Source: a bacterium (GTDB lineage: Bacteria; UBP6; UBA1177; JAKLFG01). Taken from it: a stretch of 64,000 bases of DNA. The stretch's first letter is position 1; every line of letters begins with the position of its first letter. The stretch is from positions 102,293-166,292 of the forward strand of contig JAKLIW010000003.1 of assembly GCA_022709425.1 (NCBI GenBank). Reading direction: 5' to 3'. A program made the translations under genes and the position numbers. The notes beneath the pieces were generated by a model. The model did no database searches, was not told where the DNA came from, and worked only from the letters and a program-made list of their open reading frames with translations. This document shows, piece by piece, positions 6,343 to 36,800 of the stretch.

Positions 6343-6454
6343 GGGCCCCTCCCAGGGTACAGATAAAAAGGAGTATCGCGTTTCTCTCCGATTTTGTCAA
6401 GTTGCGGGACAGCCCTTGTCACACCGGGTGTGCTAGAGTGAAAAACGACGAATA

Positions 6455-12482: not shown

Positions 12483-12503
12483 ACAACAGGTCGGGAGAAC
12501 AGG

Positions 12504-13583: not shown

Positions 13584-13647
13584 ACGAAACCGAAACCAGA
13601 ACCAAGCATATTGATCCTAAACAAATCCATGAGAGAATTATTGTTTA

Positions 13648-18772: not shown

Positions 18773-20181
18773 GTAGAAAATTTCAATGCAAAGCGATACC
18801 AAGCACTTGGCTTGAGCACAATGGTCGCCGCCTTGATTGTGGTCCCTATATGTCCGGGGCTATAGAAGCCCGCGAACTTCTAAAAAGGCACGAAACAGAG
18901 GCTCTCCAATCTCTAACGGCGGGGTATAACGGAGGAATTTATAACGGGCCACAATTCGTTAGGAACTACGTTGAAGATCCAGCTTTCGGAGTCCCTTTTT
19001 TAACGACTTCAACAATGCAGCAAAGCGATACGAGTGGCCTTCCTATGATTAGTCGAAAAGACGCACATTCATCCAAGTTGCGCTACTTAAAAGTTAATGA
19101 GGGAATGACGCTGATCACATGCTCAGGAAGCATAGGGAAAATGGCCTATGCAAGAAAGGACATGGAAAAAGCGTGGTCAAACCAAGACATCATGAAGGTT
19201 GTTGCAGATCGAGCCAAAATCCTCCCTGGATATCTCTATGCCTACCTTTCTAGTCGTTTTGGTGTTCCGATGGTAGTCTCAGGCACTTACGGGGCAATCA
19301 TCCAGCATATTGAGCCGCATCACATTTCAGACCTTCCTGTTCCACGTCTCAGCGAAATTGAGAATCAAGCACATGACCTGATTCAAGGAGCAGCGAACCT
19401 GAGGGTTGAGGCTGCCGAAATAATTGCGCAGATCAGCGCAGAGGTCGAGAGAAGATTCGATTTGTGGGATGAGTCATTATCTGACAAGGCGAGAATAGCA
19501 AGAAACGGTTTTTTAACAACGTCTACTGCTCTTGCAGAGTCGGGCCGCTTTGAAGCCACTTACCATGACGCGATCGCTGCAGCAATCGCTGACAGGGTTC
19601 AATCTCAACCAAATACCCGAATAGACATTGTATGTAAAGTTAAGAAGCCAGGTATGTTCAAAAGGATCATGGTTGATGGCCCCGAACACGGCTATGGCTT
19701 TGTCCCTGGTTCTGAGTTATTTACATTGGCACCAAAGCCCGTGTACTGGGTCTCGCCGAGAACTCCGAATATCGAAGATTGTGTGATGTCTCCGTATTGG
19801 ATTCTCATCCAAGCGTTTGGGCAGCTTGGCGGATTGATTGGCCGATGTATTATGACTACTCCAATGCTGGAGGGTTGTGCCGCCACTGATCTTCAGATTC
19901 AACTCAGATTCGACAATAAGTTAGACGCTGGTTATGTGTTCGCGATTCTTTACAGTCGACCTGGTTATAAACTAATTACTAGAACTCCCATCGGTGGATC
20001 AATTCCGCACATTCATCCGAAAGACATTGAGTCACTTTGTATCCCTTGGCCAGAAGCAGATGTAAGACATGCTATTGGTGAAAGGATTATTGAGGCTTGG
20101 GATAAGCGTGAAGAAGCTGTTCGATTAGAGGATGAAGCCCGCTCCCTAGTCGAACGCACCATCGAGGAGGGAGGTCACTAA
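18769..20181 (+). CDS. HsdS-like specificity subunit with two target-recognition domains
   Basis: 470 aa. Two repeats of the TRD-end conserved block (GAIIQHIEPHHISDLPVPRLSEIENQAHDLIQ and GGSIPHIHPKDIESLCIPWPEADVRHAIGERIIEAW), the latter coiled-coil-like. Lower GC than the flanks. ATGA overlap with the upstream MTase. Confidence 0.7.
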   Translation: MSRKFQCKAIPSTWLEHNGRRLDCGPYMSGAIEARELLKRHETEALQSLTAGYNGGIYNGPQFVRNYVEDPAFGVPFLTTSTMQQSDTSGLPMISRKDAHSSKLRYLKVNEGMTLITCSGSIGKMAYARKDMEKAWSNQDIMKVVADRAKILPGYLYAYLSSRFGVPMVVSGTYGAIIQHIEPHHISDLPVPRLSEIENQAHDLIQGAANLRVEAAEIIAQISAEVERRFDLWDESLSDKARIARNGFLTTSTALAESGRFEATYHDAIAAAIADRVQSQPNTRIDIVCKVKKPGMFKRIMVDGPEHGYGFVPGSELFTLAPKPVYWVSPRTPNIEDCVMSPYWILIQAFGQLGGLIGRCIMTTPMLEGCAATDLQIQLRFDNKLDAGYVFAILYSRPGYKLITRTPIGGSIPHIHPKDIESLCIPWPEADVRHAIGERIIEAWDKREEAVRLEDEARSLVERTIEEGGH

Positions 20182-23100
20182 TGGCGAAGGTCATACCCAT
20201 CGGGCAACCCGCGAACGAATCTGAACGCCAGGCCATTGGTTTCCTTCGGGACCATTTGCCCGATGGATGGCTGATCTTCCACAACTTCGAGATGCGCCAG
20301 GGAGAGGAAGTGTTCGAAATTGACATTGCCATCCTCGCGCCTCACGCGGTGTACCTAGTGGATGTCAAGGGGACGCGGGGCAACATCGATGTGTATGGCT
20401 CCAAGTGGTACCCCGAAGGGCGGCAGCCTTTTCATTCGCCACTCGCTAAGTTGCGCAGCCACGCCAAGACCATGGCCACCATCATCCGCGAGAGCAATAC
20501 CGGCTTGATTGAGTTGCGCAAGGCCCATGTGCATGCTGCCGTGCTGCTCACCGCCGATGACGCTGTCGTGTTCGACCAGGCAGGCATAGACAGCCCAGAT
20601 GTGACCGACTTCAAACATTGCCTGAAATACTTCCGTGACCAAAGCCGCATCCCCGACAACCGTCTGGATAACATCACCCGCTTCCACTCCCAGATTGCCA
20701 AAGCGATTACCGGCAAAGCAAAGCCCAAGAGCGCTGCCCTGGTGTTCCGCGACTGGCAGGTTGAAGAGAAGCTCGGCGGCACCGACCGTTACACCGAATA
20801 TCGTGCCAAGCACAACCTGCTGGGCAAGAGCGGCGGCATGGCCCGCCTGCGCGTCTACCAAGCCGACCCCTATCAGGATGAGACCGCTCGCAAGGAAGAG
20901 TTCAAGAAAATCAGTAACGCATATCGTGCTGTCGCACATATGCCGACCCACGCCAACGTGCTGGCGGTGAAAGATCTCTTCAAGAATGAGGACGAGGATA
21001 AGATCGTACTGGTAACCGAGGACTTGCCCGGACAAGCTCTGCGCCTGCATATCAACAAGGCCTCCCTAGCGCTGACCTTCGATCAAAAACTACAAGTGAT
21101 GCGCGATGTATTGTCGGCGCTGGACCACGCGCATCGGCATGAGGTGATACACCGCAATCTCACCCCGGACGCCATTCTGGTTACCAAGGGTGGGCAAACA
21201 AGAGTTGTCGATTTTGATTATGCTCGTATTGGAAACAATCAAACACTTACTATTGCGCCCCTTATTATTGAGGATTTGGCAAAAAAAGAGTTTGAGAAAT
21301 ACCAAGCTCCAGAATGCGTGAGGTCTCCTGAGAAGGCTAGTATTGCATCAGATATCTATTCTTCAGGAGTTGTTTTTTATGAGCTACTAACTGGCGAACT
21401 ACCTTTTGAAAGTGTCGACCAGATGATAGAGGCCGCCGGCAAGTTCCCGGTGAACCCTTCAGAGCATAAGCCGGACCTGCCCAAAGGGATTGACGAGTGG
21501 ATACAGAAGTTCTGCGAGTTCGACCCCGAGGAACGGCACACCAACGCGGCCATTGCCCGCAAGGCCCTGGATGATCTGATTCTGCCCGAGGCCAAGAACG
21601 ACTCTGCTCCGGATGTTGGCGGCCCGGCCGCGGTTGTGCCTCAGCTCCCGGATGACTTGATGAACCTGCCGCAGAATTTCATACTGGCAGATCGCTTCCG
21701 CATTCAGAAAAAGCTGGGCAGTGGCGGCTTTGGGGTTGTCTACAAGGTATTTGATTCGCTAGGCGATGTGGTGCGGGTCATCAAACTGGTAACCAAAGAC
21801 CGCAACAGCGTATACGAACGACTACGCCGCGAATATAAAACCTTGATTAATCTGCCAGACCATCCGCGCGTAGCAAAGGTGATCTGGGCTGATCGCATGA
21901 ACGATACCCCTCAAACGCCCTACATAGTCTTTGAGTATCGGGAAGGTTTAGATGTTTCCGATCTGATCGATGCTAAAGCACTATCGGCGGAGGATGCCGC
22001 AAATATCGTTCGCGAGGCTGCTGAAGGATTGGCTCATCTCCACAAGCATGGTGTTTATCACCAGGATATCAAGCCGTCTAATCTGTTGTGGACTGACAAT
22101 GGTGTTTGCATCATCGATTTTAATATCGCAGTTTCCGAGAATGAAGAGCATCAAGGAGGCGGTGGTACGCGCCGCTATCTGCCGCCAGATTACGATTACT
22201 CCTCCAGGCCGGACACTTCTGATTGGATAGATCGCGACCTCTATGCCTTAGGTATTTCATTCTACGAGTGTCTGACCGGAACATATCCTTTCGACAGCCA
22301 CACACCACCGATCAAGGTGCAACCTAAGGACCCCAAGCAGTTCAAGGGTTGTGCCGACCTCAGTTCAACGCTTATAAATGTGTTGGTGAAGATGATTGCG
22401 CCGGAACGCAAGAATCGATTCGCCTCGGCGGAAGAGTTTTTGACCGCCCTGGCCGAGGTCAAGCGTCTGCGCTCGGTACTGACCACCGGAGAGGTTGGCG
22501 CCGGACACAAGGTCTTGTCCAAGCTAGGTTTCGAGCCGATTAAGCCCAACACCAATCCCTTTGTCACTCACCTGCTGACTCTCTACAGCCAGAGCCAGGT
22601 GTCTAACGCGGGCACCCGCGGTCTCGACGAAGTTGGCAAGGCCACCTACGTGCCGACCTATCTGGACGAAAAACTCAAGCCCGCGCTGCTCAAGGGAGAG
22701 TTCCGCCTGGTCATCATCAGCGGTAACGCCGGTGACGGTAAGACGGCTTTTATTCAGCAGTTCGAGGCTTTTGCCGAGAGCAAAGGCGCACAGATGCAGC
22801 GTGGCGCGAATGGGGCTGTTTTTCAGCTTAAGGGGTATACCTACCAGAGCAACTACGACGGTAGCCAGGATGAAGGCGACGAGCGCAACGACGCCGTGTT
22901 GCAGAAGTTCTTTGCCCCCTTCGCGGGCAAGGACGATTTCGGATGGCCCCAGAATCAGACCCGCCTGATCGCCATCAATGAAGGACGATTGGTCGATTTC
23001 TTTCTGGAACATGAAGAGGAGTTCCCTCTGCTCACCAAGCAGCTCCAGCAGGGGTTGGCCGGAGCCGCTCCGGAAGGGGGTATCGCAGTCATCAACCTCA

Positions 23101-24335
23101 ACCTGCGCTCGGTGGTTGCCGAACCCGAGGGAGGTCCGCCTTCGATTCTGGAGCGCCTGATCGCCCGCATGTCACAACAGGAATACTGGCAGGCCTGCGA
23201 GAAGTGTGATCTCAAGGGCAAGTGCTACGCCTATCACAACGCCCGGACCTTCCAGGATCCAGTTGCCGGTCCCAGGGTGATCGAGCGCCTAAAGATTCTT
23301 TATACCATTACCCACCTGCGCGGCCGCTTGCACATCACCATGCGCGATCTGCGTTCGGCGCTGGCATTCATGTTGGTGGGCACGCATGATTGCGACGCTA
23401 TTCACCAGCTCTATCAGAACGGCGGCGAGGAGACCCAGAATCGCATCCTTAACGGTTTCTATTTCAACTCATGGCTTGGCGGGGTAGAAGGCTCCTGTGA
23501 TCGGCTGATTGCCTTGCTGCGCGAGATCGATGTTGCCGAAGTCAGCAACCCCGAGCTTGATAGAAAATTGGGATTCCTAGCCCCCATACACCACAAATCG
23601 TCAAGGTATAATTTCGATGAACGAGCAAATTATGACGAGGATATTCTTAATACCTTGTTCCGCAATCTGCCTCGCGATTACTCGTCGAAGAACCGTGGTC
23701 GACTGATCGCCAAACACCGGATTTACCTATCTCACATGCGTCGTCGCCATTTCTTTGAACGACGCGACATTGGTTGGAAGAAGATGCTGCCTTACGGGAG
23801 TATTGATCCCTTCTTGGATGCTATTAAACAGCCTGGAGTGAAAAGTACCGATGAGGTTACCGCCATTCTACGAGCTATCAACCGCGGCGAAAGTCTGAGC
23901 GATCCGGCGCGATTGGGTAACCAGTTGGCGCTGCGTGTTCGCCAGGTGGACAAGGGCACAATCCGCAGTTACCGCCTCTTTGACGGCGACCATTTCACGC
24001 TCCGCACCGAGCAGAAAATGGCGACACATCCTTTCCTCGAGTGCCTGTCTCAGGTGTTGACGCTGCTTTATGATTCCGGCGACGGGCATAAGGCCAGCCT
24101 GCGCATCAATCTCGATATCTATGAAATGCTGATGCGGCTCAACAACGGTTACCGCCCCAGCATTGAGGAGCAGGAAGGCTTTTACCTGAGCCTAGCGGTA
24201 TTCAAGAATGTTCTATCCGCCGCTCCCTATCAGGAGGTCCTTCTCACCGAAAGCGGCTTTGAATTTTATCAGATCCGGCGTGACGAAAAGGGGATCTTAC
24301 ATTTTGGAAAAGTAAGCACGAGGACTGGAACATGA
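20181..24335 (+). CDS. Multidomain NERD nuclease + pseudokinase + Ser/Thr protein kinase + P-loop NTPase protein (1384 aa), PglW-like
   Basis: N-terminal NERD (GEEVFEIDIAILAPHAVYLVDVKGTRGNI). Kinase-like domain 1 has a degenerate catalytic loop HRNLTPDA and DFD. Kinase domain 2 has GSGGFGVVYKV, HQDIKPSNLLW and DFN. Downstream Walker A VIISGNAGDGKT. Confidence 0.85.
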   Translation: MAKVIPIGQPANESERQAIGFLRDHLPDGWLIFHNFEMRQGEEVFEIDIAILAPHAVYLVDVKGTRGNIDVYGSKWYPEGRQPFHSPLAKLRSHAKTMATIIRESNTGLIELRKAHVHAAVLLTADDAVVFDQAGIDSPDVTDFKHCLKYFRDQSRIPDNRLDNITRFHSQIAKAITGKAKPKSAALVFRDWQVEEKLGGTDRYTEYRAKHNLLGKSGGMARLRVYQADPYQDETARKEEFKKISNAYRAVAHMPTHANVLAVKDLFKNEDEDKIVLVTEDLPGQALRLHINKASLALTFDQKLQVMRDVLSALDHAHRHEVIHRNLTPDAILVTKGGQTRVVDFDYARIGNNQTLTIAPLIIEDLAKKEFEKYQAPECVRSPEKASIASDIYSSGVVFYELLTGELPFESVDQMIEAAGKFPVNPSEHKPDLPKGIDEWIQKFCEFDPEERHTNAAIARKALDDLILPEAKNDSAPDVGGPAAVVPQLPDDLMNLPQNFILADRFRIQKKLGSGGFGVVYKVFDSLGDVVRVIKLVTKDRNSVYERLRREYKTLINLPDHPRVAKVIWADRMNDTPQTPYIVFEYREGLDVSDLIDAKALSAEDAANIVREAAEGLAHLHKHGVYHQDIKPSNLLWTDNGVCIIDFNIAVSENEEHQGGGGTRRYLPPDYDYSSRPDTSDWIDRDLYALGISFYECLTGTYPFDSHTPPIKVQPKDPKQFKGCADLSSTLINVLVKMIAPERKNRFASAEEFLTALAEVKRLRSVLTTGEVGAGHKVLSKLGFEPIKPNTNPFVTHLLTLYSQSQVSNAGTRGLDEVGKATYVPTYLDEKLKPALLKGEFRLVIISGNAGDGKTAFIQQFEAFAESKGAQMQRGANGAVFQLKGYTYQSNYDGSQDEGDERNDAVLQKFFAPFAGKDDFGWPQNQTRLIAINEGRLVDFFLEHEEEFPLLTKQLQQGLAGAAPEGGIAVINLNLRSVVAEPEGGPPSILERLIARMSQQEYWQACEKCDLKGKCYAYHNARTFQDPVAGPRVIERLKILYTITHLRGRLHITMRDLRSALAFMLVGTHDCDAIHQLYQNGGEETQNRILNGFYFNSWLGGVEGSCDRLIALLREIDVAEVSNPELDRKLGFLAPIHHKSSRYNFDERANYDEDILNTLFRNLPRDYSSKNRGRLIAKHRIYLSHMRRRHFFERRDIGWKKMLPYGSIDPFLDAIKQPGVKSTDEVTAILRAINRGESLSDPARLGNQLALRVRQVDKGTIRSYRLFDGDHFTLRTEQKMATHPFLECLSQVLTLLYDSGDGHKASLRINLDIYEMLMRLNNGYRPSIEEQEGFYLSLAVFKNVLSAAPYQEVLLTESGFEFYQIRRDEKGILHFGKVSTRTGT

Positions 24336-26008
24336 GCATTAGGGGCAAAGATAAGGAGTTCCGAACTCCCAAAATTACCTATATCGACTTCAAGCACATC
24401 GAGATGGATCGAGTGCTGACCCTGCTCTTCCCCCGACTGAAATATGACGGGTATACGAGCAGGTTCAGCAGAGCGAGAAAACTGGAAGTCGAGGACTTCC
24501 TGACCGAGTTCATGGAGCATGATGAGTGGTTTGACGGATTTGATAAACATAAGGAAATAATAAAGAAATGGCTTGAGACAGATCTGCTTGATCTTGTGAA
24601 TAGGGGAAGGGCAAATCAAGCAGTGGCGGCTCCTCGACCGCTTCATGGGAATACCTATAAGTTTCGCAATGTAAAACACACGAGGGATTATGGGGCGGCA
24701 GAACACCTATATTGGATGCTTTATTATGCCCGTAGAGGTAGATGTGAGGCGGCTAGAAGCTCCTTAAAAAAATTCTTCTTTACAGGATACGATTTTCACA
24801 CTGACAAATATGATGCTGGTCTCAATGTAGATGTCGAAACACAAGCGATTTTGAGACTCGACCTCCAAGTAACTCAGGATACAAAAAGCAACGATGAGCC
24901 GGAGAGATATCAGCCTCTATGTGTTGGCCAAGCCGACATAATGGCCGACGACATTCTACGACTTCTGGCCTATGAGTCTTATGTCCCACGTTCGGTGTTA
25001 GTGGATTACCTCAAAACTCTAATGGCATTCCATCTGGCACTTTACCATCTCAAGTTGTTACAGATGCTACCAAGGCTGGTGAAACAGCGATCCGAAAACG
25101 ATCTTTGCACCACCAAGGAATGCCCGATCAATCCGAGCCTCGACAATGTGTTGGAATGCTGTCCTTACCGCTTAGCGCTGGTCGTAGACATGGGCAACAT
25201 CAACAATCCTCATATTGCCGAGCTGGCCCGCAAGTCAACGGAGCGGTTCTATCGCCAGATCCCGGCATTCGTGCAATCTAATTTTATCGTTAAAAAGCTT
25301 GATGAGATGGCGGAGAATATGCGTCTTCAAGGGAAACTGGCATTGCCTTCGAGTGGTCACTTTTCAGCTGGTGATTTAATTGGTCTGCTTAAGTCTGAAC
25401 ATGATTCAAATCGGGAGGCCTATTTTACGGCTCGCCTTTCAAAATTGATCGAAGAGGCAGGAACAAGCGGGGAGGAAATTGACCCGGAGATCCGAGATGT
25501 TACTTCGATGAACCTGAATGCGTTTGAGAAATTCATCGAAATTCTGATGGCGTATCGAGGCAAGTATCACCGCCAGTACATCACCGAGTGTCTAGATTCC
25601 CTTCTGCTGAAGAACAAAGAGAACGGTCTGCTGGCCCAACCCCGGACCAAGGGAAGTCCTCGGCGGTTTGTGTTGGGGAGCAAGTTACTTGAAGTGCTGC
25701 TTCAGGTGGCCGTGCTCACCCAAGACGGCGGTCGCTTCGTGACCCGCGAGGTTCGCATTGAGGAGTTGCTGGCTTTTTTGAGAAATCGTTACGGCCTTTA
25801 CATTGACCGACTGCCAGAAGGAGCCCATGCCAACAGCAGCATCCTCGACAGGCGCGCTTTGCGCCTCAACCTTGAAGCCTTTAAGCGTCGACTTCGTGAA
25901 ATCGGATTTTACGAGGATCTGTCGGATGCCTATGTGACCCAGAAGGTATCGCCCCGCTATGCGATTGAGAGAAATGACGGAACAGATAAAAACGGGAGGC
26001 ACGCATGA
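24332..26008 (+). CDS. Hypothetical protein (558 aa), translationally coupled within the defence-like operon
   Basis: 4-nt overlaps at both ends. No motif was recognised. The 5' half has lower GC. Confidence 0.6.
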   Translation: MSIRGKDKEFRTPKITYIDFKHIEMDRVLTLLFPRLKYDGYTSRFSRARKLEVEDFLTEFMEHDEWFDGFDKHKEIIKKWLETDLLDLVNRGRANQAVAAPRPLHGNTYKFRNVKHTRDYGAAEHLYWMLYYARRGRCEAARSSLKKFFFTGYDFHTDKYDAGLNVDVETQAILRLDLQVTQDTKSNDEPERYQPLCVGQADIMADDILRLLAYESYVPRSVLVDYLKTLMAFHLALYHLKLLQMLPRLVKQRSENDLCTTKECPINPSLDNVLECCPYRLALVVDMGNINNPHIAELARKSTERFYRQIPAFVQSNFIVKKLDEMAENMRLQGKLALPSSGHFSAGDLIGLLKSEHDSNREAYFTARLSKLIEEAGTSGEEIDPEIRDVTSMNLNAFEKFIEILMAYRGKYHRQYITECLDSLLLKNKENGLLAQPRTKGSPRRFVLGSKLLEVLLQVAVLTQDGGRFVTREVRIEELLAFLRNRYGLYIDRLPEGAHANSSILDRRALRLNLEAFKRRLREIGFYEDLSDAYVTQKVSPRYAIERNDGTDKNGRHA

Positions 26009-29000
26009 GCAATGCGTTCATCAAGCTTTCCTATGATAAATTGAACGCAGCGGTCGCTTGTCTGCTGTGCCCGCGTATCGAAACAATCCTGGGTGACCGT
26101 GGCCCAGGCCACTGCATGCGGATCACCGATCTCGATGACGATGTAATGGAGTCTGTCTGCAAGGAACTGCGCCGAACCCGACCCGACGGAAACATCTTTA
26201 TCCTTGGTAGCCATGATCAGGAAAGTCTGCCTTTCCGAGTCACTTCCACCAAACTGGTGGAATTGCGCAACCCGGACTCGAACGGCGAGTTGCGTCAGCC
26301 TTTGATGGTCTTTATACCCACCTCGCTTCGCACCAGCGCCGAGGATTCTTTCGGCGTGGCGACCTTCGAGGAGCTGGCCTTCACCGGTATCTATGAGAAC
26401 CTTATCGACTCACTACTAGATCGGATCCCGACAACACTGGTCGGCCCTGTTCGCGACCTTTTTGGTTTCCTCACAGAGGAGGAATGGCTGTTTGCCGATG
26501 ATGTTTCTCGTGTGCGGTACCTGCTCACTGCGCTCGAAAACGGGATTGATGGAGAAACCCTCGGGGCCAGCCTGTATGAATTGACTTTGATCCCGGACTT
26601 CAAGCTTTTTGCCGATCCTGGCATGCTCAGGGGCAAGATTCGCCGTAACCTCGACAGCGTCCGTAGTTTGATGATTTCTCACAAGTCGGTTCGTGGACGC
26701 ATTGCCGGTTTGGGCCTCAGCGACAAGACCTTGGAATCGCGCCTATTCGCCTACTTTGAAAAACACGATGTCCATGAGCCGGAATCCTGGACCTTGCCCA
26801 TCGCGACTGATAAGAGCTGGTGGAGCATTTCTTTCGACAAATGGACATTCCGGGGAGAGCTTTACCTAGACAAGGTTCTGCTGACGGTGCTGGGAACCGA
26901 CTTGCCGGTTGTTCAGAAGGAAGAGACCGATGACCAGCTTTCCGGCCTGATTGGACAACAGGTTCTGATCCCGAATGATCGCCGCAAAATGAATGTGGAG
27001 TTCGAGGTCAATCCTCACCCGGGCAAGGTCAGCGGTCTTGACCATTTTACGGTTCAGATCGTTTCGCAGAATGATGGCCCGGTAGGAAAATCAAAAAAGG
27101 TTAAAGCGTGGACGCCGAATCGCCTTCAATGTACGACTAATCTTGCAAAGCTCAATAAGGTTGAATTCGAGGAAGGATGGCATTTCATTCGTATCTTGCC
27201 TTGGTCGGCAGACGGCGATCAAATTCCGCTGGAAGCGGGTTCTTCCTCCGAAGGTGCTAAACACTCCTATGAAAGCGAACCATTCTATGTCCTGCCCGGT
27301 GGCAACATTGAGGAGGAACCGCCGCAAAGAGCCATACCCATTGAACAGAGCCTAGAGCATGCACGTTTCCGGTTGCAACTGACGGCATTGGGCGATGAGC
27401 GCGATCCGGAAGACATCGCTATCAGTAGTGTCGTTTGGGCCGAAGGCAACAGTTCGAAGAAGGTCTCCCGACATGAAACCTTGCTTGCGAAATTTGGTCG
27501 CGAGGGCGCTTTTCAGATACCGCTTTCGCGCATGCTCAAAACCATTGAGCAACGCATCTTGGCTGAGCCCAAGCATCCATCAGGCTGGCGAATGCAGATC
27601 AATCTGGATACCCCTGAGTTGCCATCTGAGGTTGGTCTCACGCTGCCTTCTTCTGCCGCAATGGCCTCTTTTTTGGCCGCTCGCGAAGAGTTTTTTGCAG
27701 CGGTACGCAAAGACACTGCCGAGTTGATTATGCAAGGGCTTTCGTTCCGAGACTCGGAAAAGGAATGCCTTGCCTATGCGGAAGGGTACCTTGATCTAGT
27801 AAGAAATCTTATCCGCCAAGCCGAGACGACTTCTGGTGCCGACCGCCAACAACACCTACAATCGCTCAGGAATGTGTTGGCCGTTGATTCCATTCATGTC
27901 GTCTTAACTGATTTCCGCGGAAGACACCGGGAGGCTGTTTTGGTCTCTCCAACCCATCCGCTCCGTGCTTTGTGGCTAAGCAGCTGGGTCACCCTGGGTA
28001 AGGATTGGATCGAGAAGATCAAATCAGGCGGAAAGGATTACATTCCTCATGTTCGTTCTGCGCTCCTAGAACGCCTTGCGCCATCTGCCTATCCGGTCGG
28101 TATTCCAGTCGAGGATGGCCGAATCTTCACTCCGGTCGACAACCTGAATGCGTTCTGGGCACTTTACGCCCCAACAACCGAGGAAAATTCCAGAGGCCTG
28201 ATGGCGGAAATCTGTTCAGCGCTTGGCTTGGCCGAGCCCTCTGCGGCGGGAACAGATGTTTGCGGAAAGGTCATTGCGGACAAGATCGAGCGCTATCTCT
28301 CCCAGCATCCGTATGTGCGAGAGTTATCACTAAACATCTTCAACCCGGGCGCCGCATCAGTAATTGCGGATGCCCTGCTCTCGCTCCAGCAAAAGCGTGA
28401 GCATGCCGATTTGCGCTATGACATCCGGCTCTTCACATCGGACCCCGATTCGCCAGTTTTAGGTGAGGCACTTGAATCGATGGTCCGTCCCGGGGCAACA
28501 GTAAACGAGGCCGCTGACGCGTTTGCGATTTCGACGGGCAGCCATCTGTTCTCCAAGCTGAACTTGGCTAAGCACGCGCTGAATGAGTTTCGTTCAAATT
28601 CCAAGGAATTCCCGGCACACATCAGCGTTCTTCTGGATGTGTTTCCCGCCGAGGAGATATCCATTACAGAGAAGCCGATGGGCGTGACCCCATTGCATGG
28701 GCTGATACAGGACTTTGACACTGACTTCGTTGATGACGATACGGGTACCTTCTGGAACAAGCGGCCGATTGTCGGACGATCCCTCGCTGCGGATAGCCAC
28801 GCGACATGCTTTGATTTGTTGTCGTCCCTGAGCCGAAACCTCAGTTTCGCTACCTCAGCGATTGCTGCTTCTGGTGCCAGTTTTAAATCTGTGCCCGTCA
28901 TAACCCTTGGCCTCGATGCCGTTCAACGAGAACTAATCTACGAAGTGCACCAGATTAGCGATTGGGTGTTCACCATCGACCGAAATATGGGGATTGAATT

Positions 29001-31467
29001 TTTCGATCATGGTGGCCGGAAGAATAGACCAGACTATCTGATTGACTATGTGCCTGGAGCCAGTTCTCAGGCGACACACAACCTAATCATCTCTTCGCGA
29101 TCGAACGATGAGCTGGAGGCAATGCTGAAGCCGGTGCTGCTCGAGCACGGATTGTCCGCCGACGGTGAGCAGTCGGTTCAGATATTGGCAAATCTGCGGT
29201 CGCTTTCCGGCCAGCTTGCCCTGAAGCTGATTTCTGCTCGTACGCAACAGGCGGAAGCACTTGGTTTGGCTTTGGCACGGCTCTATCTCGAATATCAGGG
29301 CGCATTGAGCAACCAAGTAATTGTGCCGTTGGACGCGCATACGGACCTTTACCGCTCAAGCGATGAGTCAAACGACGTCAACGACGCTATAAGCCTTCAA
29401 CGCACTGACTTGGGACTGTTTGACTTAGATTTGAACACTAGGACGATCACTTGCAACCTGATCGAAGTGAAATGCTATTCGCAGGTGGGCAATTTCGCAG
29501 CCTTTAACCAACTGAAGGAACGAATTTCCGCCCAAATCAATCAGAGCGAGCGAATTCTCCAGCGCCACTTCGACCCGGCCCTAAAAAAACCGGACCGGCC
29601 GGATAGGCTGCTCAAGAGCCGAGAGTTTGCGCAGATCCTTCGTTTCTATCTAGAACGCTCTTTGCGCTACGGGATCTTTGATGCGACCGCTGCGCAAGAG
29701 TCGCGAGGATTACTTGAGTCCATCGAGCAAGGCTACTCGCTTCAGTTCAAACGCTGCGCTCTGATCTTTGATTTTGAAAAGGCGGGCACCGATGCTCCGG
29801 ACAACGAAGTGGGCATTGAATTCCACCGCATCGGCAAAGATCTCATTCATGCCTTGCTGGAGAGTTGCCGCAAGTCTGTTTCTGTCGAGACGGAGAAAGA
29901 GCCGACTACACATCTTCTAAGCGAGCAGTTTATCCACAATGTGCCGAAGCTCGAGACAGCGGTCTTTATTGCACCCAAGAGAACCCGGTCAACATCTTGG
30001 ACTTTGGATGAACTCTGGGACGATGAGCCGGAGGTGCCAATCACTCCGCCAGCATCCTCGGCCGCACGGGAAACACCCAAGGTAGCCAAGGAGAAAACAG
30101 AAAAACAGTCGAAACCTTTTGAGCAAGCACCTCGACCTCCCGCAATCGCTTCTGAAGAAGATGGCGAACAACTCGCCTCCGTGGATGCCTTATCAGAAGC
30201 CCCTGCTAAATCCGAACCCGAAATGCAAGAGACTCAGACGTCTAAACCTGTCTCACAAGCAGAGGTCAGCTATGACATTATGCTCGGCGTCAATGGCGGC
30301 TCGCCTCAATACGGATTACTCGGAGAGATTTCCGGCAGAAAAGTCGCGCTGGATCTCAATCACACCCACACGATCAGTTTATTCGGGGTTCAAGGTGGCG
30401 GTAAGAGCTACACCCTTGGAACGGTGATTGAGATGGCATCCATGCCGCTTCAGCACATCAATGTGCTGCCAAGCCCCCTCGCTACGGTCATTTTCCATTA
30501 CAGCCCGACGCAGGATTATGCGCCGGAGTTTACCTCGATGATCCATGCCAACTCAGTGGAAGAGGAAATTCGCATTCTGCGAGAGCATTACAAGGCTATG
30601 CCGAAGGCTCTGAAGGATGTGTTGGTCCTTACCCCGGCGAATAAGGTGAGTGATCGCCGGGCCGAGTACCCAGATATCGAGATTAAGCCGATAGCTTTTT
30701 CTGCCTCCGAGCTTAAAGCGGCTCACTGGAAATTCCTGATGGGTGCGATTGGTAGTCAAAGCATGTATATGCGGCAAATCAATCTCATCATGAGAGGCCT
30801 GAGGGATAACCTAACATTGGATGCTCTGCGAGCAGGTATTGACAACTCAGGTCTGTCCGATCATCTCAAAGAGCTAGCCCAGACGCGCCTTCTTTTCGCC
30901 AGCGAATACATCGACGATAACCAGCGACTTCAAGATCTGATTCGTCCAGGCCGTTTGATCATCGTTGATCTGCGCGATGAATACATTGAGAAAGACGAGG
31001 CCCTGGGTCTGTTTGTGGTGATGTTGCAGATTTTCTCGGAAGCAACCTACCAGGGGAGCGCCTTTAACAAGCTGGTGGTTTTCGATGAAGCCCACAAATA
31101 CATCGAAAACGATGACTTGGTTTCTGGCCTTGTTGAGGTTGTCCGTGAGATGCGACATAAAGGGACCAGTATCATGGTGGCATCTCAGGATCCGCCATCG
31201 GTCCCTGTCTCCCTTATTGAGCTGTCATCGCAAATCATCATGCACAAGTTTAACTCACCTGCCTGGTTAAAACATATTCAGAAGGCAAATGCTGCCCTGG
31301 GAAGACTGTCTTCTGACAAGATGAGCCGCTTGAGCACAGGCGAAGCTTATGTTTGGTCATCAAAATCTTCAGATGAAGCATTCACAAAGGAAGCGATAAG
31401 AATAAAGCTGCGTCCCAGAGTCACTCAGCATGGAGGCGCCACAAAGACTGCCGTAGCCGACAAATGA
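26005..31467 (+). CDS. Giant protein (1820 aa) with an internal PD-(D/E)xK-like motif and a C-terminal HerA/FtsK-like (DUF87-type) P-loop ATPase
   Basis: The C-terminal region has ALDLNHTHTISLFGVQGGGKSYTLG (Walker A in HerA-like context) and LVVFDEAHKYI (Walker B DEAH). Around aa ~1135, LFDLDLNTRTITCNLIEVKCY gives a D...E-V-K core. The N-terminal ~1100 aa is unassigned. Confidence 0.75.
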   Translation: MSNAFIKLSYDKLNAAVACLLCPRIETILGDRGPGHCMRITDLDDDVMESVCKELRRTRPDGNIFILGSHDQESLPFRVTSTKLVELRNPDSNGELRQPLMVFIPTSLRTSAEDSFGVATFEELAFTGIYENLIDSLLDRIPTTLVGPVRDLFGFLTEEEWLFADDVSRVRYLLTALENGIDGETLGASLYELTLIPDFKLFADPGMLRGKIRRNLDSVRSLMISHKSVRGRIAGLGLSDKTLESRLFAYFEKHDVHEPESWTLPIATDKSWWSISFDKWTFRGELYLDKVLLTVLGTDLPVVQKEETDDQLSGLIGQQVLIPNDRRKMNVEFEVNPHPGKVSGLDHFTVQIVSQNDGPVGKSKKVKAWTPNRLQCTTNLAKLNKVEFEEGWHFIRILPWSADGDQIPLEAGSSSEGAKHSYESEPFYVLPGGNIEEEPPQRAIPIEQSLEHARFRLQLTALGDERDPEDIAISSVVWAEGNSSKKVSRHETLLAKFGREGAFQIPLSRMLKTIEQRILAEPKHPSGWRMQINLDTPELPSEVGLTLPSSAAMASFLAAREEFFAAVRKDTAELIMQGLSFRDSEKECLAYAEGYLDLVRNLIRQAETTSGADRQQHLQSLRNVLAVDSIHVVLTDFRGRHREAVLVSPTHPLRALWLSSWVTLGKDWIEKIKSGGKDYIPHVRSALLERLAPSAYPVGIPVEDGRIFTPVDNLNAFWALYAPTTEENSRGLMAEICSALGLAEPSAAGTDVCGKVIADKIERYLSQHPYVRELSLNIFNPGAASVIADALLSLQQKREHADLRYDIRLFTSDPDSPVLGEALESMVRPGATVNEAADAFAISTGSHLFSKLNLAKHALNEFRSNSKEFPAHISVLLDVFPAEEISITEKPMGVTPLHGLIQDFDTDFVDDDTGTFWNKRPIVGRSLAADSHATCFDLLSSLSRNLSFATSAIAASGASFKSVPVITLGLDAVQRELIYEVHQISDWVFTIDRNMGIEFFDHGGRKNRPDYLIDYVPGASSQATHNLIISSRSNDELEAMLKPVLLEHGLSADGEQSVQILANLRSLSGQLALKLISARTQQAEALGLALARLYLEYQGALSNQVIVPLDAHTDLYRSSDESNDVNDAISLQRTDLGLFDLDLNTRTITCNLIEVKCYSQVGNFAAFNQLKERISAQINQSERILQRHFDPALKKPDRPDRLLKSREFAQILRFYLERSLRYGIFDATAAQESRGLLESIEQGYSLQFKRCALIFDFEKAGTDAPDNEVGIEFHRIGKDLIHALLESCRKSVSVETEKEPTTHLLSEQFIHNVPKLETAVFIAPKRTRSTSWTLDELWDDEPEVPITPPASSAARETPKVAKEKTEKQSKPFEQAPRPPAIASEEDGEQLASVDALSEAPAKSEPEMQETQTSKPVSQAEVSYDIMLGVNGGSPQYGLLGEISGRKVALDLNHTHTISLFGVQGGGKSYTLGTVIEMASMPLQHINVLPSPLATVIFHYSPTQDYAPEFTSMIHANSVEEEIRILREHYKAMPKALKDVLVLTPANKVSDRRAEYPDIEIKPIAFSASELKAAHWKFLMGAIGSQSMYMRQINLIMRGLRDNLTLDALRAGIDNSGLSDHLKELAQTRLLFASEYIDDNQRLQDLIRPGRLIIVDLRDEYIEKDEALGLFVVMLQIFSEATYQGSAFNKLVVFDEAHKYIENDDLVSGLVEVVREMRHKGTSIMVASQDPPSVPVSLIELSSQIIMHKFNSPAWLKHIQKANAALGRLSSDKMSRLSTGEAYVWSSKSSDEAFTKEAIRIKLRPRVTQHGGATKTAVADK

Positions 31468-32185: not shown

Positions 32186-33829
32186 TTACCGTTTCTCCCC
32201 GTTAGGGCGGGTTCCGGCCTTCACATCCTTTGGATTGTCTGGTTGAGGTGTGTAATCGTCGAATGGACAAAGTTCCGGGTGCCGGTCGCAGTAACATTCC
32301 ATGTCGCGGGCTTTCATATAGGGAGCACTACTATCCTGCCAAACAACCCAATGGTTCTCAAATTCGGTATAGGATTGACGATATTCCAGTACCCCATCTT
32401 TATGCGGTGTCGGTAAAGAGCAGTAGCTTTTCTTTAGATCGAGTCTAAAAAAACATGCTCGGATATCCCAGTCATCTTTCTCGGTATTGGTGTAGAAATT
32501 GTTGTTATAAATTAAAAGAACACCCTTGGCGCTGACGGGGTACACACTCATTAAGGGATCTATCAGTTCCTCCATTTTCAAGTATTCATACTGTATCGGT
32601 GTTTTGCTTAGATCGACGCGAAGAAGAGAATCTCTCGTCTTATAAGCATCGGCGTAATAAAGGATATCTTCATTCGTTGAGTCGAGTACAAGATTAAGGG
32701 CGCCTTCTCCTTCGCGATTAACTACCCGACATTCGTCAAGAGAAAGCGGCTTCTTGTCGAGGTCGCAAATATAACCTTTAAAGTTATTGGCATGAAATAC
32801 CAACCGATTGTTCACAATGCTGGGCTCATTTGCTACGCCGTCTCCCAAACCGATCCATTTCCATTCGCCGATCTTGGCGTACATCATCTTTGTGGAGAGC
32901 GCATCCGATTCTTTTATATTGGCAAAAGCCCACGTCTCATTGATCACCGGATTATACACTGTTTGTCGGATCTTTTTGGGATAAGCGACTTGCCATGAAG
33001 AATTGTTCGAGTAGAGCAGATATTCCATTTTATCGTCACGGCCCGATTTTACATTGCTGAGCTTTGCGCCTTTGTAATAGGTCAGTACATCGATACCGGG
33101 ATCCATTGCAGAATACTTCCGTGTATTCAAGTCGAATTCAAAGTTTTTGGTCCATACCTGAGGATAGTTTTGCCAAGCCGAATCGACGTGTGACATCACG
33201 AACCCAACTTTACCTAGGCTCAGGTTGAAGTGTTTGAAGGTTCGAATGGCCATTTGCCATCCTTTGGGGTTGTTGGGGTTCAACATCATGTCGCATTCGT
33301 CGAGATAATACCCCTCCCTCTCATCTTTGTAAAAAGGCGTCAGTTTTCCCATCGTGCAGGGATAGCCGCAACAATCGTAATCGGGCATCGCAGTACAGAG
33401 CGCGCAGTTTTGTTCCTTCCACAAATTGCGAACGCACTGAGGGTCGCTCTTCCATACCTTGTCGCACTTCCGGCAGAAGTGTATCTTGCTGTCGGTGTCA
33501 TAGTAAGGAAACGCTACTTGGGAGAGGTCTGGGCACTCTTCGTTCCCGGTGTGGGTGTTGGTTATGTACTCGATCCCTTCGGGATCGGCAAGGCACGAGC
33601 CTCCTATTACATCTTTATCTGACTGTGCATTGTCCATTTCAACAAATTCCTCGTCGTCGGACAAGGTATCGTCTGTTTGGTCAGCTTGAACTATAATATC
33701 AACATCAGTAACGGTGTCTATCTCTTTGATTTGTTTATTTTTTTCACAGGCACAAGCAGAGAATAAGAAGAATGCTGAAATGCTTAGGATGCGGCAATAA
33801 ACCAGCTTCTTGGTTGTCTGCTGTTTCAT
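32186..33829 (-). CDS. Secreted lipoprotein (547 aa) with an acidic linker and a Cys-rich domain, lower GC
   Basis: Lipobox signal MKQQTTKKLVYCRILSISAFFLFSAC. The D/E-rich stretch DDTLSDDEEFVEMDNAQSDKD. Many conserved Cys. Its start is 2 nt after the stop of the upstream giant gene. Confidence 0.6.
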   Translation of the reverse strand: MKQQTTKKLVYCRILSISAFFLFSACACEKNKQIKEIDTVTDVDIIVQADQTDDTLSDDEEFVEMDNAQSDKDVIGGSCLADPEGIEYITNTHTGNEECPDLSQVAFPYYDTDSKIHFCRKCDKVWKSDPQCVRNLWKEQNCALCTAMPDYDCCGYPCTMGKLTPFYKDEREGYYLDECDMMLNPNNPKGWQMAIRTFKHFNLSLGKVGFVMSHVDSAWQNYPQVWTKNFEFDLNTRKYSAMDPGIDVLTYYKGAKLSNVKSGRDDKMEYLLYSNNSSWQVAYPKKIRQTVYNPVINETWAFANIKESDALSTKMMYAKIGEWKWIGLGDGVANEPSIVNNRLVFHANNFKGYICDLDKKPLSLDECRVVNREGEGALNLVLDSTNEDILYYADAYKTRDSLLRVDLSKTPIQYEYLKMEELIDPLMSVYPVSAKGVLLIYNNNFYTNTEKDDWDIRACFFRLDLKKSYCSLPTPHKDGVLEYRQSYTEFENHWVVWQDSSAPYMKARDMECYCDRHPELCPFDDYTPQPDNPKDVKAGTRPNGEKR

Positions 33830-33830
33830 T

Positions 33831-36800
33831 TTAACACCCGCTGTCGTAGCAGTCGCCGTTATCCCAAGCGGTACAGGTGCTATTACAGATTGCCGAACCG
33901 CTGTCCCATTGTGTCGGATCGACCATCGCGCAATCTTCGCTGTTCCCGTCGCAGAACTCGCCCGGTTCGATGATGCCGTTGCCGCAGATAGCGGGAACGG
34001 TGTTATTCGTCGAAAGCTTTACCTTGTTCCCGTCAGGGATGTAGACCCAACCGTTGTACAGGTAGTTCTCCTGCATTTCGCGCATGTCGCCATCCAACTC
34101 AGTGTAGTCGATGTAGGTATTCGGCAGACCGGCGAAGCGATACTCATACCCGTCACAGGAGAGGTAGAACGCGCCGTGGTCGGTCGTCAGCTCTCCGGTC
34201 GAGCAGTACGGATAGTCCCACGCCTTCCGTGTTGCAAGGTTATCGACATCGCGGATATCGATGCCCGATGACCAGAAGTCGTCCCAGTACATCGCGATCT
34301 CGCCGTTCGTAATGGCGAAGTCCATGGTACTGCCGATGTTGACATAGGCTACGCGGGCAAAGTTTTCGGGGTTGCGGATGTTAATGCCGTTGTCGTCGCC
34401 GACATAGAGATTGCCGTTATAGAGTTGGATGCGGTACTGGTAGTTGTACGGCGTGCTGTAGAAGGAACCGATGATCGAAAGGGTGTCGGGATTGACGGTA
34501 TTGAGTTTGTAGATGCCGCCGCTGGTCGCCGCGTACATGATATCGCCGTCGGCCACTTCGAGGTCGTAGACGGTCTTGTTGGTGGTAAAGGTGCTCTTGA
34601 GAACCATCGCGTTCGGGTCGCTGATGTCGTAAACCTTGATTGCACTGCCGGTACCGACATAGAGGCGATCCCCCTTGCCTGCTACGCTGTAAACGGTCGA
34701 GCCGATCGAGTACTGCTTGTACCACGGGTGGGTGAATGGGGTGCAGATATTTCCGATAAAGGTACCCCCTTCAAGAATATCATCATTGTCATTCAAGCAA
34801 TAACTTGGTGGCGCGGTAATCTTTTGCTTAATGGTTATAGTTCTCTCAGCAAGAACGTCGCTTGCTCTATCAATCGTCAGCATGGATGTCGTTGTTTCCT
34901 CAGATTGTGGTTGGGTAATGAATTTAATCGTTTCGTCATCAATGATGGTAAATGTTTTATAAAGATCTATTTGCAGATTCTCTGCCAGCTGCTCAAGCCC
35001 ACCACTGGGAGAATAACGCCAGACATCGTTGATTGGCGTCGGGATTCCATTGTACAGATTGAAGCCTCCTAGCAGATAGATAACCCCATCGGGAGTTGTT
35101 GATATGTTGACAAAATTGCGAGGCAATGGCTTGGCGACCATGGGAATAACGTCAAATGTTGTAGTGGCAGAGTTGAATCTATGAAGTGTCAGCCCATCAA
35201 GCTCATGAGTCAAGGTATATAGTTTCGTGCCAGCTGCTATCAAATGGATAGCTCCGCTTACCTCTGGTAAAGTTCCAACATGGGTTAAAACATGGGTATA
35301 AGTTGTGGGCATTGTGAATTGCAGAGCCGATGAATCGCGTTGCTGTACGGAATAAAGGCTAGCGCCAATAGACACATAGAGCCTATCGTTTAATATCGCT
35401 CCACTCATTAGGTGTGCGCTTGCTGGGAGTGCAAAGGATCCGGCATATGCGGTGTCGCTGGGGCGAGCATCATTCTGGTACCGCAGTTCGACATATCTTT
35501 CATCTTCATGTTCGTAAAAAAGAATTGTCTCTCCAGCATATTGCAGGCCAAACTTTAGATTGGTTTGAGGAATGATTCTCTGGTTTTTTTCCAATTCTTG
35601 CGTGATACTGTTATACCGCCATAGGTCGAAACGGTCATCAGCATAAGGATATCCAGGTGTTGCCTCAGGCATAGTGTAGGTGATTTCAAAAGGAAGGCGA
35701 GGGGGAACGATAAAAACCTGATCGGGCGCGTAACTCATTCCTATCGCATAGGAAAGGGGCGTGCCGGAGAAGCTGTCTCGTGTTGAACGGGCAAAGATTC
35801 TGTCGTTCTTGAAGCAGGCGCTATTTTGTGTTTTGCCACCTTCGCCATCATCTACGAGGTCGTTGGCTTCTGTGCATTTCACGGTACCTTGAGGACCACC
35901 CGAAACGGCATAAGTGATAAAGGGATCGAGCGAAGGGTTATAAGTTGGCTCCTCATTAGCGACATGTTCTTCATATAAATCCAAGTATTCTCCTTCTAAG
36001 TCTGGTTTCCAGTCCCAAAGATGCGTTTGGTCCGGAGATTCTTCGTAGATTCCCTTTTGGCTTACGATATTATTTCCGGTAGGTACTTGCCATGATGGAT
36101 CAGTCCCCTGTCTGAGTGGCATAGGGTCGCTTCCGTGACTGTACGCGAAATCGCTAGAAAAGAGGAAGTGAATTGAAGATTCGTTGCTCGTTGTGCAGTA
36201 ACCGCCAGTACCCCAACGATTGCTATAATCACTTTGAGGCACCCAACAATAGCGAAGAATACTGGGATGCGCTATACTGTTGTAGACTGGCGCTCCTTGA
36301 GATATGACTCCTGAGTCATGATCTATTGCGACAAGACTGTTTATTTCACGAGATTGTACCTGACCACCATAAACGATTTCGTTCTTTGGAGAGCCATTAA
36401 CAAAACGAGAAGAAATAACAGTATGATGCCATCCGTCTCCCACAAGATTGTCAGGGCCTATCCCTTTGGGAGTATCACAGGCATCTCCGGTACCGTCCAA
36501 ATCATGATCGGGCTGCCATGTCCATTTTGAGAAAGATAAAAAAAGGTTAGGAGATGTTTTCAGATAACCGTATTTGAAAGTCTTTTTGTTGTATCGTGCT
36601 CCGCCCTCGTTTTCATTGGTACAGTGGGGCAGGGAAAGATCTCCATTTTGAAAGTAAGAAACTCCTGTTCTACATTCCCCCTGAATAAGTTCACTGTTCC
36701 AATCTTCAGCTTCCACAAAGGGGTTCCCCTTTTGTGGACAATTATCGCAGATGTCAGCGATACCATCGGTATCCGAGTCGGCAATGGGAGTTCCAAACTG

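Follow-up and report, generated by a model that had tools for sequence, protein, structure and literature searches.

What kind of protein carries a nuclease-like motif and a HerA/FtsK-type ATPase in a single chain of 1820 residues, and what does it do? The question is raised by an open reading frame (ORF) at 26005-31467 on the forward (+) strand of a 64,000-nucleotide stretch of bacterial DNA (contig JAKLIW010000003.1 of assembly GCA_022709425.1, positions 102,293 to 166,292; the whole stretch is called the window below, and coordinates refer to it). Sequence comparison makes it nearly certain that this ORF corresponds to mad8, the final gene in a Methylation-Associated Defence System (MADS) operon, and that its product, MAD8, is a DndH/SspH-like multidomain ATP-binding protein. 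Both the layout of the protein and the operon are already known: MAD8 is a named and widespread family within a named system that is recognised by annotation pipelines.

The ORF is among the longest of the window. It starts with ATG, 6 nucleotides 3' of a ribosome-binding site (GGGAGG); the start codon overlaps the stop codon of the upstream gene as ATGA, and in orthologues an in-frame stop is found directly 5' of the equivalent Met. The start is well supported. The protein exceeds the cut-off of the NCBIfam equivalog antiphage_MADS8 (NF047742; 233 bits compared to a cut-off of 175), with residues 35-238 aligned to positions 1-200 of the 200-position model, and it matches the PADLOC mad8 model (PDLC04140; E 5e-40) through residues 1440-1817, which cover positions 13-314 of 314. 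A public database protein, titled "MAG TPA: ATP-binding protein", is 100% identical to it. At E<=1e-5 more than 1000 homologues were obtained, the best 120 of which are full length and 81-100% identical; many are titled [quoted passage not shown], and the orthologues so named in RefSeq show 81-89% identity. In species-representative genomes (one genome per species) we identified 194 mad8 loci with MAD8 identities of 46-90%, in Proteobacteria, Acidobacteria, Cyanobacteria, Spirochaetes, Planctomycetes, Chloroflexi, Actinobacteria and other hosts. A chance ORF is ruled out by the identical public protein, the large number of homologues and these 194 loci.

The operon (14686-31467, +) is composed of six co-directional genes in the order MAD2-MAD2'-MAD5-MAD6-MAD7-MAD8, most of them overlapping by a few bases. 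The first, mad2 (14686-16752), codes for an N6-adenine DNA methyltransferase of 688 residues, here termed MAD2a, with a canonical motif I and an NPPF motif (NCBIfam antiphage_MADS2, 1018 bits, cut-off 720; Pfam N6_Mtase, 2.3e-28). It is followed by a second mad2 paralogue (16727-18772; MAD2b, 681 residues, its start being that of the gene predicted on the source contig), which scores 768 bits against the same NCBIfam model and exhibits a non-canonical motif IV, NPWF. The next gene, mad5 (18769-20181), codes for a Type I-like specificity (S) subunit of 470 residues (NCBIfam antiphage_MADS5, 495 bits, cut-off 400; PADLOC mad5 and Type I S-subunit models). The multimodular MAD6 (1384 residues; 20181-24335) contains a NERD nuclease-like domain (Pfam, 1.7e-15), two protein-kinase domains (Pfam Pkinase, 5e-64 in two stretches) and a C-terminal SspF/DndF-like core (NCBIfam antiphage_MADS6, 828 bits, cut-off 460; PADLOC mad6, 2e-120). 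Finally, mad7 (24332-26008), which overlaps mad8 by 4 nucleotides, codes for a DndG/SspG-like, presumed DNA-binding partner of 558 residues (NCBIfam antiphage_MADS7, 661 bits, cut-off 410; PADLOC mad7, 3e-123; a match to PF26611 (MAD7) on the source contig).

All six products thus exceed the NCBIfam MADS equivalog cut-offs, and the PADLOC mad2, mad5, mad6, mad7 and mad8 models also match. MAD6 and MAD7 accompany MAD8 in the order 6-7-8, a trio that is mandatory in the detection model of the authors who described MADS. The original prediction for this ORF, made from the letters alone, had placed it in an anti-phage context, and this was borne out: the operon is a complete MADS operon, annotated as such in RefSeq for Escherichia coli. 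Ten complete E. coli genomes contain a gene 82% identical to mad8, and in strain B-JRPT-4119 (RefSeq/PGAP, the Prokaryotic Genome Annotation Pipeline) the genes appear as mads1, mads2, mads2, mads5, mads6, mads7 and mads8, adjoining a transfer RNA (tRNA) gene, tRNA-Phe, and an integrase. In E. coli, mads1 is present, but mads3 and mads4 are missing, as they are in the present locus. The search for homologues and their neighbourhoods that the original prediction had proposed also showed, among the 194 loci, about 70 retained loci from many phyla in which the order and spacing of MAD2, MAD5, MAD6, MAD7 and MAD8 are as here.

Among the long ORFs scanned between 2769 and 42759 of the window, no PADLOC or NCBIfam match to MAD1, MAD3 or MAD4 was found, and tblastn with the E. 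coli MAD1 found no MAD1. These three components are classed as accessory for detection by the MADS authors (bioRxiv 10.1101/2023.03.30.534895). Judged by its gene content, the operon is a MADS subtype with two MAD2 paralogues and MAD5 to MAD8, without MAD1, MAD3 and MAD4. The two MAD2 proteins are 37% identical to each other, with NPPF and NPWF at the same place in motif IV. The related loci contained 52 instances of NPPF and 35 of NPWF, and the latter is therefore a conserved variant rather than a one-off mutation. The presence of two paralogues suggests a heteromeric methyltransferase in which one subunit is non-canonical and possibly inactive.

The components differ markedly in their conservation. 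MAD6, MAD7 and MAD8 are 75-90% identical between distant phyla (loci L001-L079, including Acidobacteria, Opitutaceae, Collinsella, Omnitrophota, Chloroflexi and many Proteobacteria), whereas MAD5 reaches only 33-53% identity among loci with MAD8 proteins that are 46-90% identical. This pattern points to a recent and wide horizontal spread of the system, combined with a rapid turnover of its target specificity.

The most conserved part of MAD8 itself is its C-terminal HerA/FtsK-type ATPase (residues 1426-1820; 30280-31464, +), which is 66-83% identical even to distant clades. Its Walker A motif, GVQGGGKS, extends from G1461 to S1468 (30385-30408) and includes K1467; the Walker B motif, VVFDE, extends from V1691 to E1695 (31075-31089) and includes D1694/E1695. 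These are followed by an arginine finger (R1717), a sensor-1 glutamine (Q1728) and a C-terminal motif (I1798-T1813; 31396-31443). Both Walker motifs, R1717 and Q1728 are invariant in the MAD8 orthologues. The strings on which the original prediction relied are located where it had placed them: ALDLNHTHTISLFGVQGGGKSYT at residues 1448-1470, with K1467/S1468 of the Walker A motif; VVFDEAHKY at residues 1691-1699; and LFDLDLNTRTITCNLIEVKCY (LFDLDL...IEVKCY) at residues 1138-1158, in the nuclease-like domain described below.

The ATPase had been said to match the HerA/DUF87 signature closely. The HerA-type kinship holds: the region matches the PADLOC HerA model (4e-7) and, weakly, the NCBIfam CedD and HerA_antiphage_2 models, and its best matches among PDB sequences are TdpA (8wet, 2e-4), a DUF87 protein (8yho) and HerA (4d2i). 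The closeness of the match was, however, overstated, as the Pfam DUF87 and HerA_C models score only 12.5-21.5 bits in five of five orthologues, below their cut-offs of 23.2 and 22, and the whole of MAD8 shows no Pfam match at E<=0.01. Searches of the PDB with the whole protein and with a full-length profile matched only the HerA-type part; the solved C-terminal domain of DndH and DndG were not recovered.

Examination of individual residues places the ATPase more precisely. The segment E1715-x-R1717-x-x-G1720...Q1728 aligns with the arginine finger and sensor-1 glutamine of TdpA and the DUF87 protein, the two features that define the HerA/FtsK clade (PMC10853773). Conservation of a trans-acting arginine finger suggests contacts between subunits and hence oligomerisation. 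At the C-terminus, IRIKLRPRVTQHGGAT (I1798-RIKLRPRVTQHGGA-T1813) fits the "clade-6" motif hxhxxRxRhsxDsGx[ST] (PMC10853773), with H in place of D, and its RPR and HGG are invariant in the orthologues; this pattern match suggests that the MAD8 ATPase may belong to the DndH "clade 6".

Since the ATPases of the HerA/FtsK, VirB4 and TraG groups are related, the C-terminal region might instead represent a conjugative coupling protein or a VirB4-type ATPase within a DNA-transfer locus, the outcome that the original prediction had named as fatal to it. The Pfam AAA_10 model gives a very weak signal (E 0.07-0.2), which, like a Mu-type transposase 8.5 kb downstream, would be in keeping with such a locus. 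Around the operon, however, no relaxase, pilus or type IV secretion system (T4SS) genes were found; the ATPase shows no Pfam match to the FtsK_SpoIIIE, T4SS-DNA_transf, VirB4 or TraG families, its best matches being HerA-type defence ATPases; and mad8 is fixed in the MADS synteny. The missing transfer genes and family matches effectively refute this explanation, to which we attach hardly any probability.

The second recognisable activity of MAD8 resides in residues 1040-1300 (29122-29904, +). Two AlphaFold2 models (residues 1-640 and 621-1330) were built from 105-sequence alignments spanning two clades. In the second model, residues 1040-1290 reach a predicted local distance difference test (pLDDT) score of 76-92 and adopt an alpha-beta-beta-beta-alpha-beta core as in PD-(D/E)xK (restriction-endonuclease-like) nucleases. 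Its elements are a helix (1079-1098), three strands (1105-1108, 1136-1142 and 1147-1158), a second helix (1164-1189) and a final strand (1245-1256). Strands 1136-1142 and 1147-1158 form a hairpin, with D1135 directly before the first and E1154/K1156 on the second. The candidate catalytic residues are thus E1084, D1110/H1112, D1135, E1154 and K1156, with the motif from R1133 to K1156 encoded at 29401-29472.

In 73 orthologues, E1084, P1108-x-D1110-x-H1112, R1133-x-D1135, D1140 and E1154-V-K1156 are invariant. Far more distant relatives retain R-x-D1135, P-x-D-x-H and E-x-K, but not D1140 and D1142. The nuclease-core motif proposed originally is therefore upheld in its E1154-x-K1156 part, which is invariant and lies in a PD-(D/E)xK-like model; the non-nuclease fold that would have undone it is not what the model predicts. 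The aspartate is another matter, as D1140 and D1142, both within the string originally quoted, were dropped as catalytic candidates because only D1135 is kept in the distant relatives. D1135, where strand 2 begins, is the most probable catalytic partner. Taken together, conservation and the predicted fold indicate a PD-(D/E)xK core that is probably active.

Several searches with this domain against known families were negative. At E<=10, Pfam returned only noise for 13 nuclease-domain segments, and the nuclease-domain profile found no match among all PDB sequences. Foldseek with the model of residues 621-1330 gave no PDB match below E 0.07, a search that was probably hurt by the poor N-terminal half of the model, and hhalign between the MAD8 nuclease-domain alignment and the MAD6 NERD alignment gave a probability of 0.2%. 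The profile was nevertheless productive among 1.84 billion representative proteins, in which it retrieved 472 clusters, 163 of them at E<=1e-30. The near-full-length relatives listed (about 1,700-2,300 residues) carry the nuclease-like domain at residues ~970-1350, and the shorter matches appear to be fragments. Between this domain and the ATPase lies a linker rich in Pro, Glu, Ala and Lys (residues 1301-1425; 29905-30279, +), which is presumably disordered: it contains indels, shows the lowest column conservation of the protein (0.39-0.61) and 14-33% identity between clades, and has a pLDDT of ~30 at its start.

Some 1100 N-terminal residues had been considered unassigned, a description that no longer applies to most of them. 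The model of residues 1-640 is confident (mean pLDDT of 85) and divides into recognisable modules; only residues ~641-1039 are poorly resolved. Residues 1-280 (26005-26844, +) consist of an alpha/beta lobe (~1-140) and an all-helical region (~141-280). The modelled lobe resembles the second (C-terminal) RecA-like lobe of the SWI2/SNF2-type superfamily 2 (SF2) helicases, without Walker motifs. Residues 281-640 (26845-27924, +) contain a beta-sandwich domain (~290-430), followed by an alpha+beta and helical segment. According to the model, the N-terminus is an inactive SWI2/SNF2-like lobe with a helical region and then a beta-sandwich, as in DndH/DptH/SspH. The middle region (residues 641-1039; 27925-29121, +) appears homologous to the middle of DndH/SspH on the strength of weak, colinear profile matches only: PADLOC SspH at 2e-6 (residues 755-1096 with model positions 772-1104) and DndH at 9e-7 (residues 897-1081 with positions 842-1015). 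In DndH the corresponding region is the target-recognition and inactive-methyltransferase module; in MAD8 it yields no clear fold match (pLDDT mostly <60). Between clades the N-terminal modules are 30-47% identical, compared to 66-72% for the ATPase; these fast-evolving modules are candidates for the sensing of DNA or of the invader.

The overall architecture is thus less singular than had been supposed. The original prediction regarded a single chain of nuclease, HerA-type ATPase and a large additional domain as unusual, yet it is by this very layout that the DndH/DptH/SspH/MAD8 proteins are defined (PMC10853773). DndH comprises an inactive SWI2/SNF2 lobe with a helix-turn-helix (HTH), beta-sandwiches, a target-recognition domain, a dead adenine methyltransferase that carries a nested recognition domain, a restriction-endonuclease domain that keeps all of its catalytic residues, and a HerA/FtsK ATPase (PMC10853773). 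Every module of MAD8 that could be resolved, whether from the models, from fold searches or from the sequence, matches this published layout. In PADLOC, MAD8 is matched colinearly by five DndH models and one SspH model, weakly (~1e-6), over residues 755-1096.

The partners of MAD8 show the same affiliation. MAD7 matches SspG in PADLOC (3.4e-9), and the MADS authors found DndG (7EXX) for Mad7 by HHpred (bioRxiv 10.1101/2023.03.30.534895). The C-terminal 584 residues of MAD6 (801-1384) match SspF (4.5e-28) and DndF (2e-7); the arrangement of its N-terminus, NERD and two kinase domains, is known from a subset of DndF proteins, where it consists of NERD, pseudokinase and kinase, and from PglW (PMC10853773, PMC12839542). 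In this regard, one relative of 1685 residues (P0343) contains a MAD8-type nuclease-like domain at residues 1023-1252 (E 1.5e-40), together with an ATPase (residues 1272-1610) that matches DndH (1.1e-48) much better than mad8 (1.6e-28). This apparent mosaic bridges the MAD8 and DndH families, and is in keeping with reports that HerA/FtsK domains are swapped. The description that suits MAD6-7-8 best is that of a DndFGH-like module.

Given such kinship, MAD8 could be a genuine phosphorothioate-dependent DptH/DndH or SspH protein, which reads a sulphur modification of the DNA backbone instead of methylation. Many homologues indeed bear the title "DNA phosphorothioation-dependent restriction protein DptH" from the Joint Genome Institute (JGI), the domain layout is the same, and the weak PADLOC DndH/SspH matches point in that direction. 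MAD8, however, passes its own equivalog model, whereas the DndH/SspH matches remain partial. The operon contains two genes for N6-adenine methyltransferases and one for an S subunit, all in fixed synteny. A scan of long ORFs within it and on either side (2.7-42.8 kb; not every ORF of the window, and none in 43-64 kb) detected neither dndABCDE nor sspABCD modification genes. The phosphorothioate-dependent reading was rejected on these grounds, and we regard it as very improbable. MAD8 was not filed as DndH/SspH because full-length models of those families were not matched, no phosphorothioate genes were found near the operon, and the system has its own methyltransferase and S subunit.

MADS was described in Pseudomonas aeruginosa SMC4386, where mad2-4 and mad6-8 are each required for defence; the system places N6-methyladenine (m6A) on both strands at TCAGNNNNTCC, and unmethylated DNA that contains the site is restricted (bioRxiv 10.1101/2023.03.30.534895). 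We computed domain assignments, synteny and conservation for the present locus, and infer nuclease activity, translocation, oligomeric state and the reading of methylation. The explanation we favour, and consider probable, combines the MADS identity of the operon with a DndFGH-like restriction module in which MAD8 is both motor and nuclease. MAD2a/MAD2b together with MAD5 would act as a Type I-like methyltransferase, placing m6A at a bipartite site in the host DNA, and MAD6-7-8 would assemble on DNA as a DndF/G/H-like restriction module. Within MAD8, the inactive helicase-like lobe, helical region, beta-sandwich and middle region may bind DNA, sense the target, or both; the HerA/FtsK-type ATPase would move the complex along double-stranded DNA using ATP; and the PD-(D/E)xK domain (D1135, E1154, K1156) would nick or cut unmethylated DNA. 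At methylated sites the motor would be halted or disarmed, as happens to DndFGH at phosphorothioate marks; DndFGH is a 2:2:1 complex that couples nicking to translocation and whose ATPase is repressed by the modification (PMC11662687). By this analogy, the module would probably cut DNA without the operon's own methylation, in a manner coupled to translocation.

Several observations weigh against this explanation. Residues 621-1030 of MAD8 are poorly modelled, mostly with a pLDDT below 60. Its DndH/SspH matches are weak and partial (13-25 bits), with no match to the full-length family models, and the NCBIfam DptH model gives no match at E<=1e-3. The 2:2:1 stoichiometry of DndFGH (PMC11662687) would, by analogy, argue against MAD8 forming a simple hexamer. 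In P. aeruginosa SMC4386, the only MADS for which methylation-dependent protection is established, MAD3 (AbiEii/Toprim-type) and MAD4 (DUF4276) are essential; both are absent from the subtype described here. The restriction mechanism of MADS is still given as unknown in a 2026 review (PMC12904381), and the NERD nuclease-like domain of MAD6 could be the real cutter.

The last two points also favour a different division of labour, in which MAD8 is solely motor and scaffold and its PD-(D/E)xK-like domain a non-catalytic DNA-binding or regulatory module. Restriction would then be performed by the NERD domain of MAD6, or there would be no cleavage at all, as in BREX-like exclusion (BREX, bacteriophage exclusion) or kinase-driven abortive infection. 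In keeping with this alternative, MAD6 combines its NERD domain with two kinase domains, NERD and kinase are treated as co-effectors in analyses of DndF and PglW (PMC10853773, PMC12839542), and no curated nuclease family matches the MAD8 nuclease-like domain at the sequence level. It has to contend, however, with the invariance of D1135, E1154, K1156, D1110/H1112 and E1084, from orthologues of 46% identity to far more distant relatives, since a nuclease domain that has lost its activity does not, as a rule, retain them. Moreover, the equivalent domain of DndH keeps its catalytic residues and DndFGH nicks DNA (PMC10853773, PMC11662687). We consider this alternative unlikely, albeit a more serious contender than the two discussed above, and retain MAD8 as the probable motor and nuclease of a DndFGH-like module.

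A more inclusive proposal would hold that MADS is a DndFGH-type restriction machine re-coupled to a Type I-like m6A methyltransferase, that the PD-(D/E)xK domain and HerA/FtsK motor of MAD8 are its restriction effector, and that the two-MAD2 subtype uses a heteromeric methyltransferase (NPPF and NPWF) without the OLD-like and DUF4276 components. On this fuller version our judgement is evenly poised. If it is true, a widespread two-MAD2 subtype works without the OLD-like and DUF4276 components on which the P. aeruginosa system depends.

The genes around the operon were also assessed. Directly upstream are those for a DUF1643 protein (11901-12482, +), a Mrr-type restriction-endonuclease-domain protein (12504-13583, +) and an HNH endonuclease (13648-14574, +) with a weak match to a Type IV methyl-directed restriction model. 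These three genes (11901-14574) may constitute a separate modification-dependent restriction unit; the trio was not found in the fetched part of other MADS loci, where the 10-kb flank mostly ends inside or just before MAD2. Further upstream is a divergent pair, composed of a WYL-WCX-HTH regulator (5392-6342, -) and an AAA ATPase (6455-8113, +) with weak IetA- and TRIP13-like PADLOC matches. This pair (5392-8113) and the MADS operon together look like a defence island. PADLOC detected no MAD1, MAD3 or MAD4 and no Dnd or Ssp genes among the flanking long ORFs (2.7-42.8 kb).

Downstream of mad8, where a terminator scan 3' of the gene gave nothing above background, are genes for a 547-residue protein without a family match (32186-33829, -) and a 1689-residue protein with thrombospondin type 3 repeats (33831-38900, -). 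Neither matches a defence system, and the pair (32186-38900) probably codes for proteins that are secreted or exposed at the surface and have no connection with MADS. A Mu-type transposase (rve integrase core and Mu transposase C-terminal domain) is located ~8.5 kb downstream of mad8 (40006-41541, -). The G+C content is 45-54% across ~12-40 kb of the window, compared to 58-64% in 46-64 kb. The transposase and the G+C contrast are consistent with a horizontally acquired island; the tRNA scan found no tRNA gene in the window, and therefore no tRNA-linked island boundary.

As a locus, the operon is one more copy of a named and widespread defence system, and nothing new in kind. In the MADS preprint only HerA homology is stated for Mad8, with no nuclease-like or N-terminal modules (bioRxiv 10.1101/2023.03.30.534895). 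The present analysis adds a residue-level map of the PD-(D/E)xK core and the ATPase motifs, the DndH-like N-terminal modules, and the NPWF-type MAD2 subtype without MAD3 and MAD4. The residue map renders the idea of a DndFGH-like translocating nuclease testable at D1135, E1154 and K1156 in the nuclease core, and at K1467, D1694/E1695 and R1717 in the ATPase.

Comparison with known systems summarises the position of MAD8. As in the P. aeruginosa MADS, the MAD6 kinase, MAD7 and MAD8 share one operon with a MAD2 methyltransferase and the MAD5 S subunit; the present locus differs from the reference system in its two MAD2 paralogues, one of them with NPWF, and in the lack of MAD1, MAD3 and MAD4. 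Like Type I restriction-modification systems, MADS has a methyltransferase and an S subunit that would mark bipartite sites, and an ATP-driven motor and a PD-(D/E)xK nuclease that would act on unmarked DNA. Unlike in Type I systems, the motor is a HerA/FtsK P-loop ATPase rather than an SF2 helicase-like HsdR, and nuclease and motor are, as far as known, not part of the methyltransferase complex. The NERD-kinase-kinase arrangement of MAD6 is shared with PglW of BREX type 2 (PADLOC PglW, 8e-71), whereas PglZ and BrxC are absent from MADS. HerA-NurA, SIR2-HerA, DUF4297-HerA and TdpAB share with MAD8 the HerA-class ATPase with its Walker A/B motifs, arginine finger and sensor glutamine. In those systems, however, ATPase and effector are separate proteins in hexamer-based assemblies, while MAD8 contains nuclease and ATPase in one chain, with a flexible linker of ~125 residues and ~1000 extra N-terminal residues. 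The nearest counterparts are DndH, DptH and SspH, which are, like MAD8, proteins of ~1700-1800 residues with the same module order and with homologous partners (SspF/DndF for the MAD6 C-terminus, SspG/DndG for MAD7). They differ from MAD8 in the self-mark, which is phosphorothioation in DndH/SspH systems and, in MADS, N6-adenine methylation by a Type I-like enzyme.

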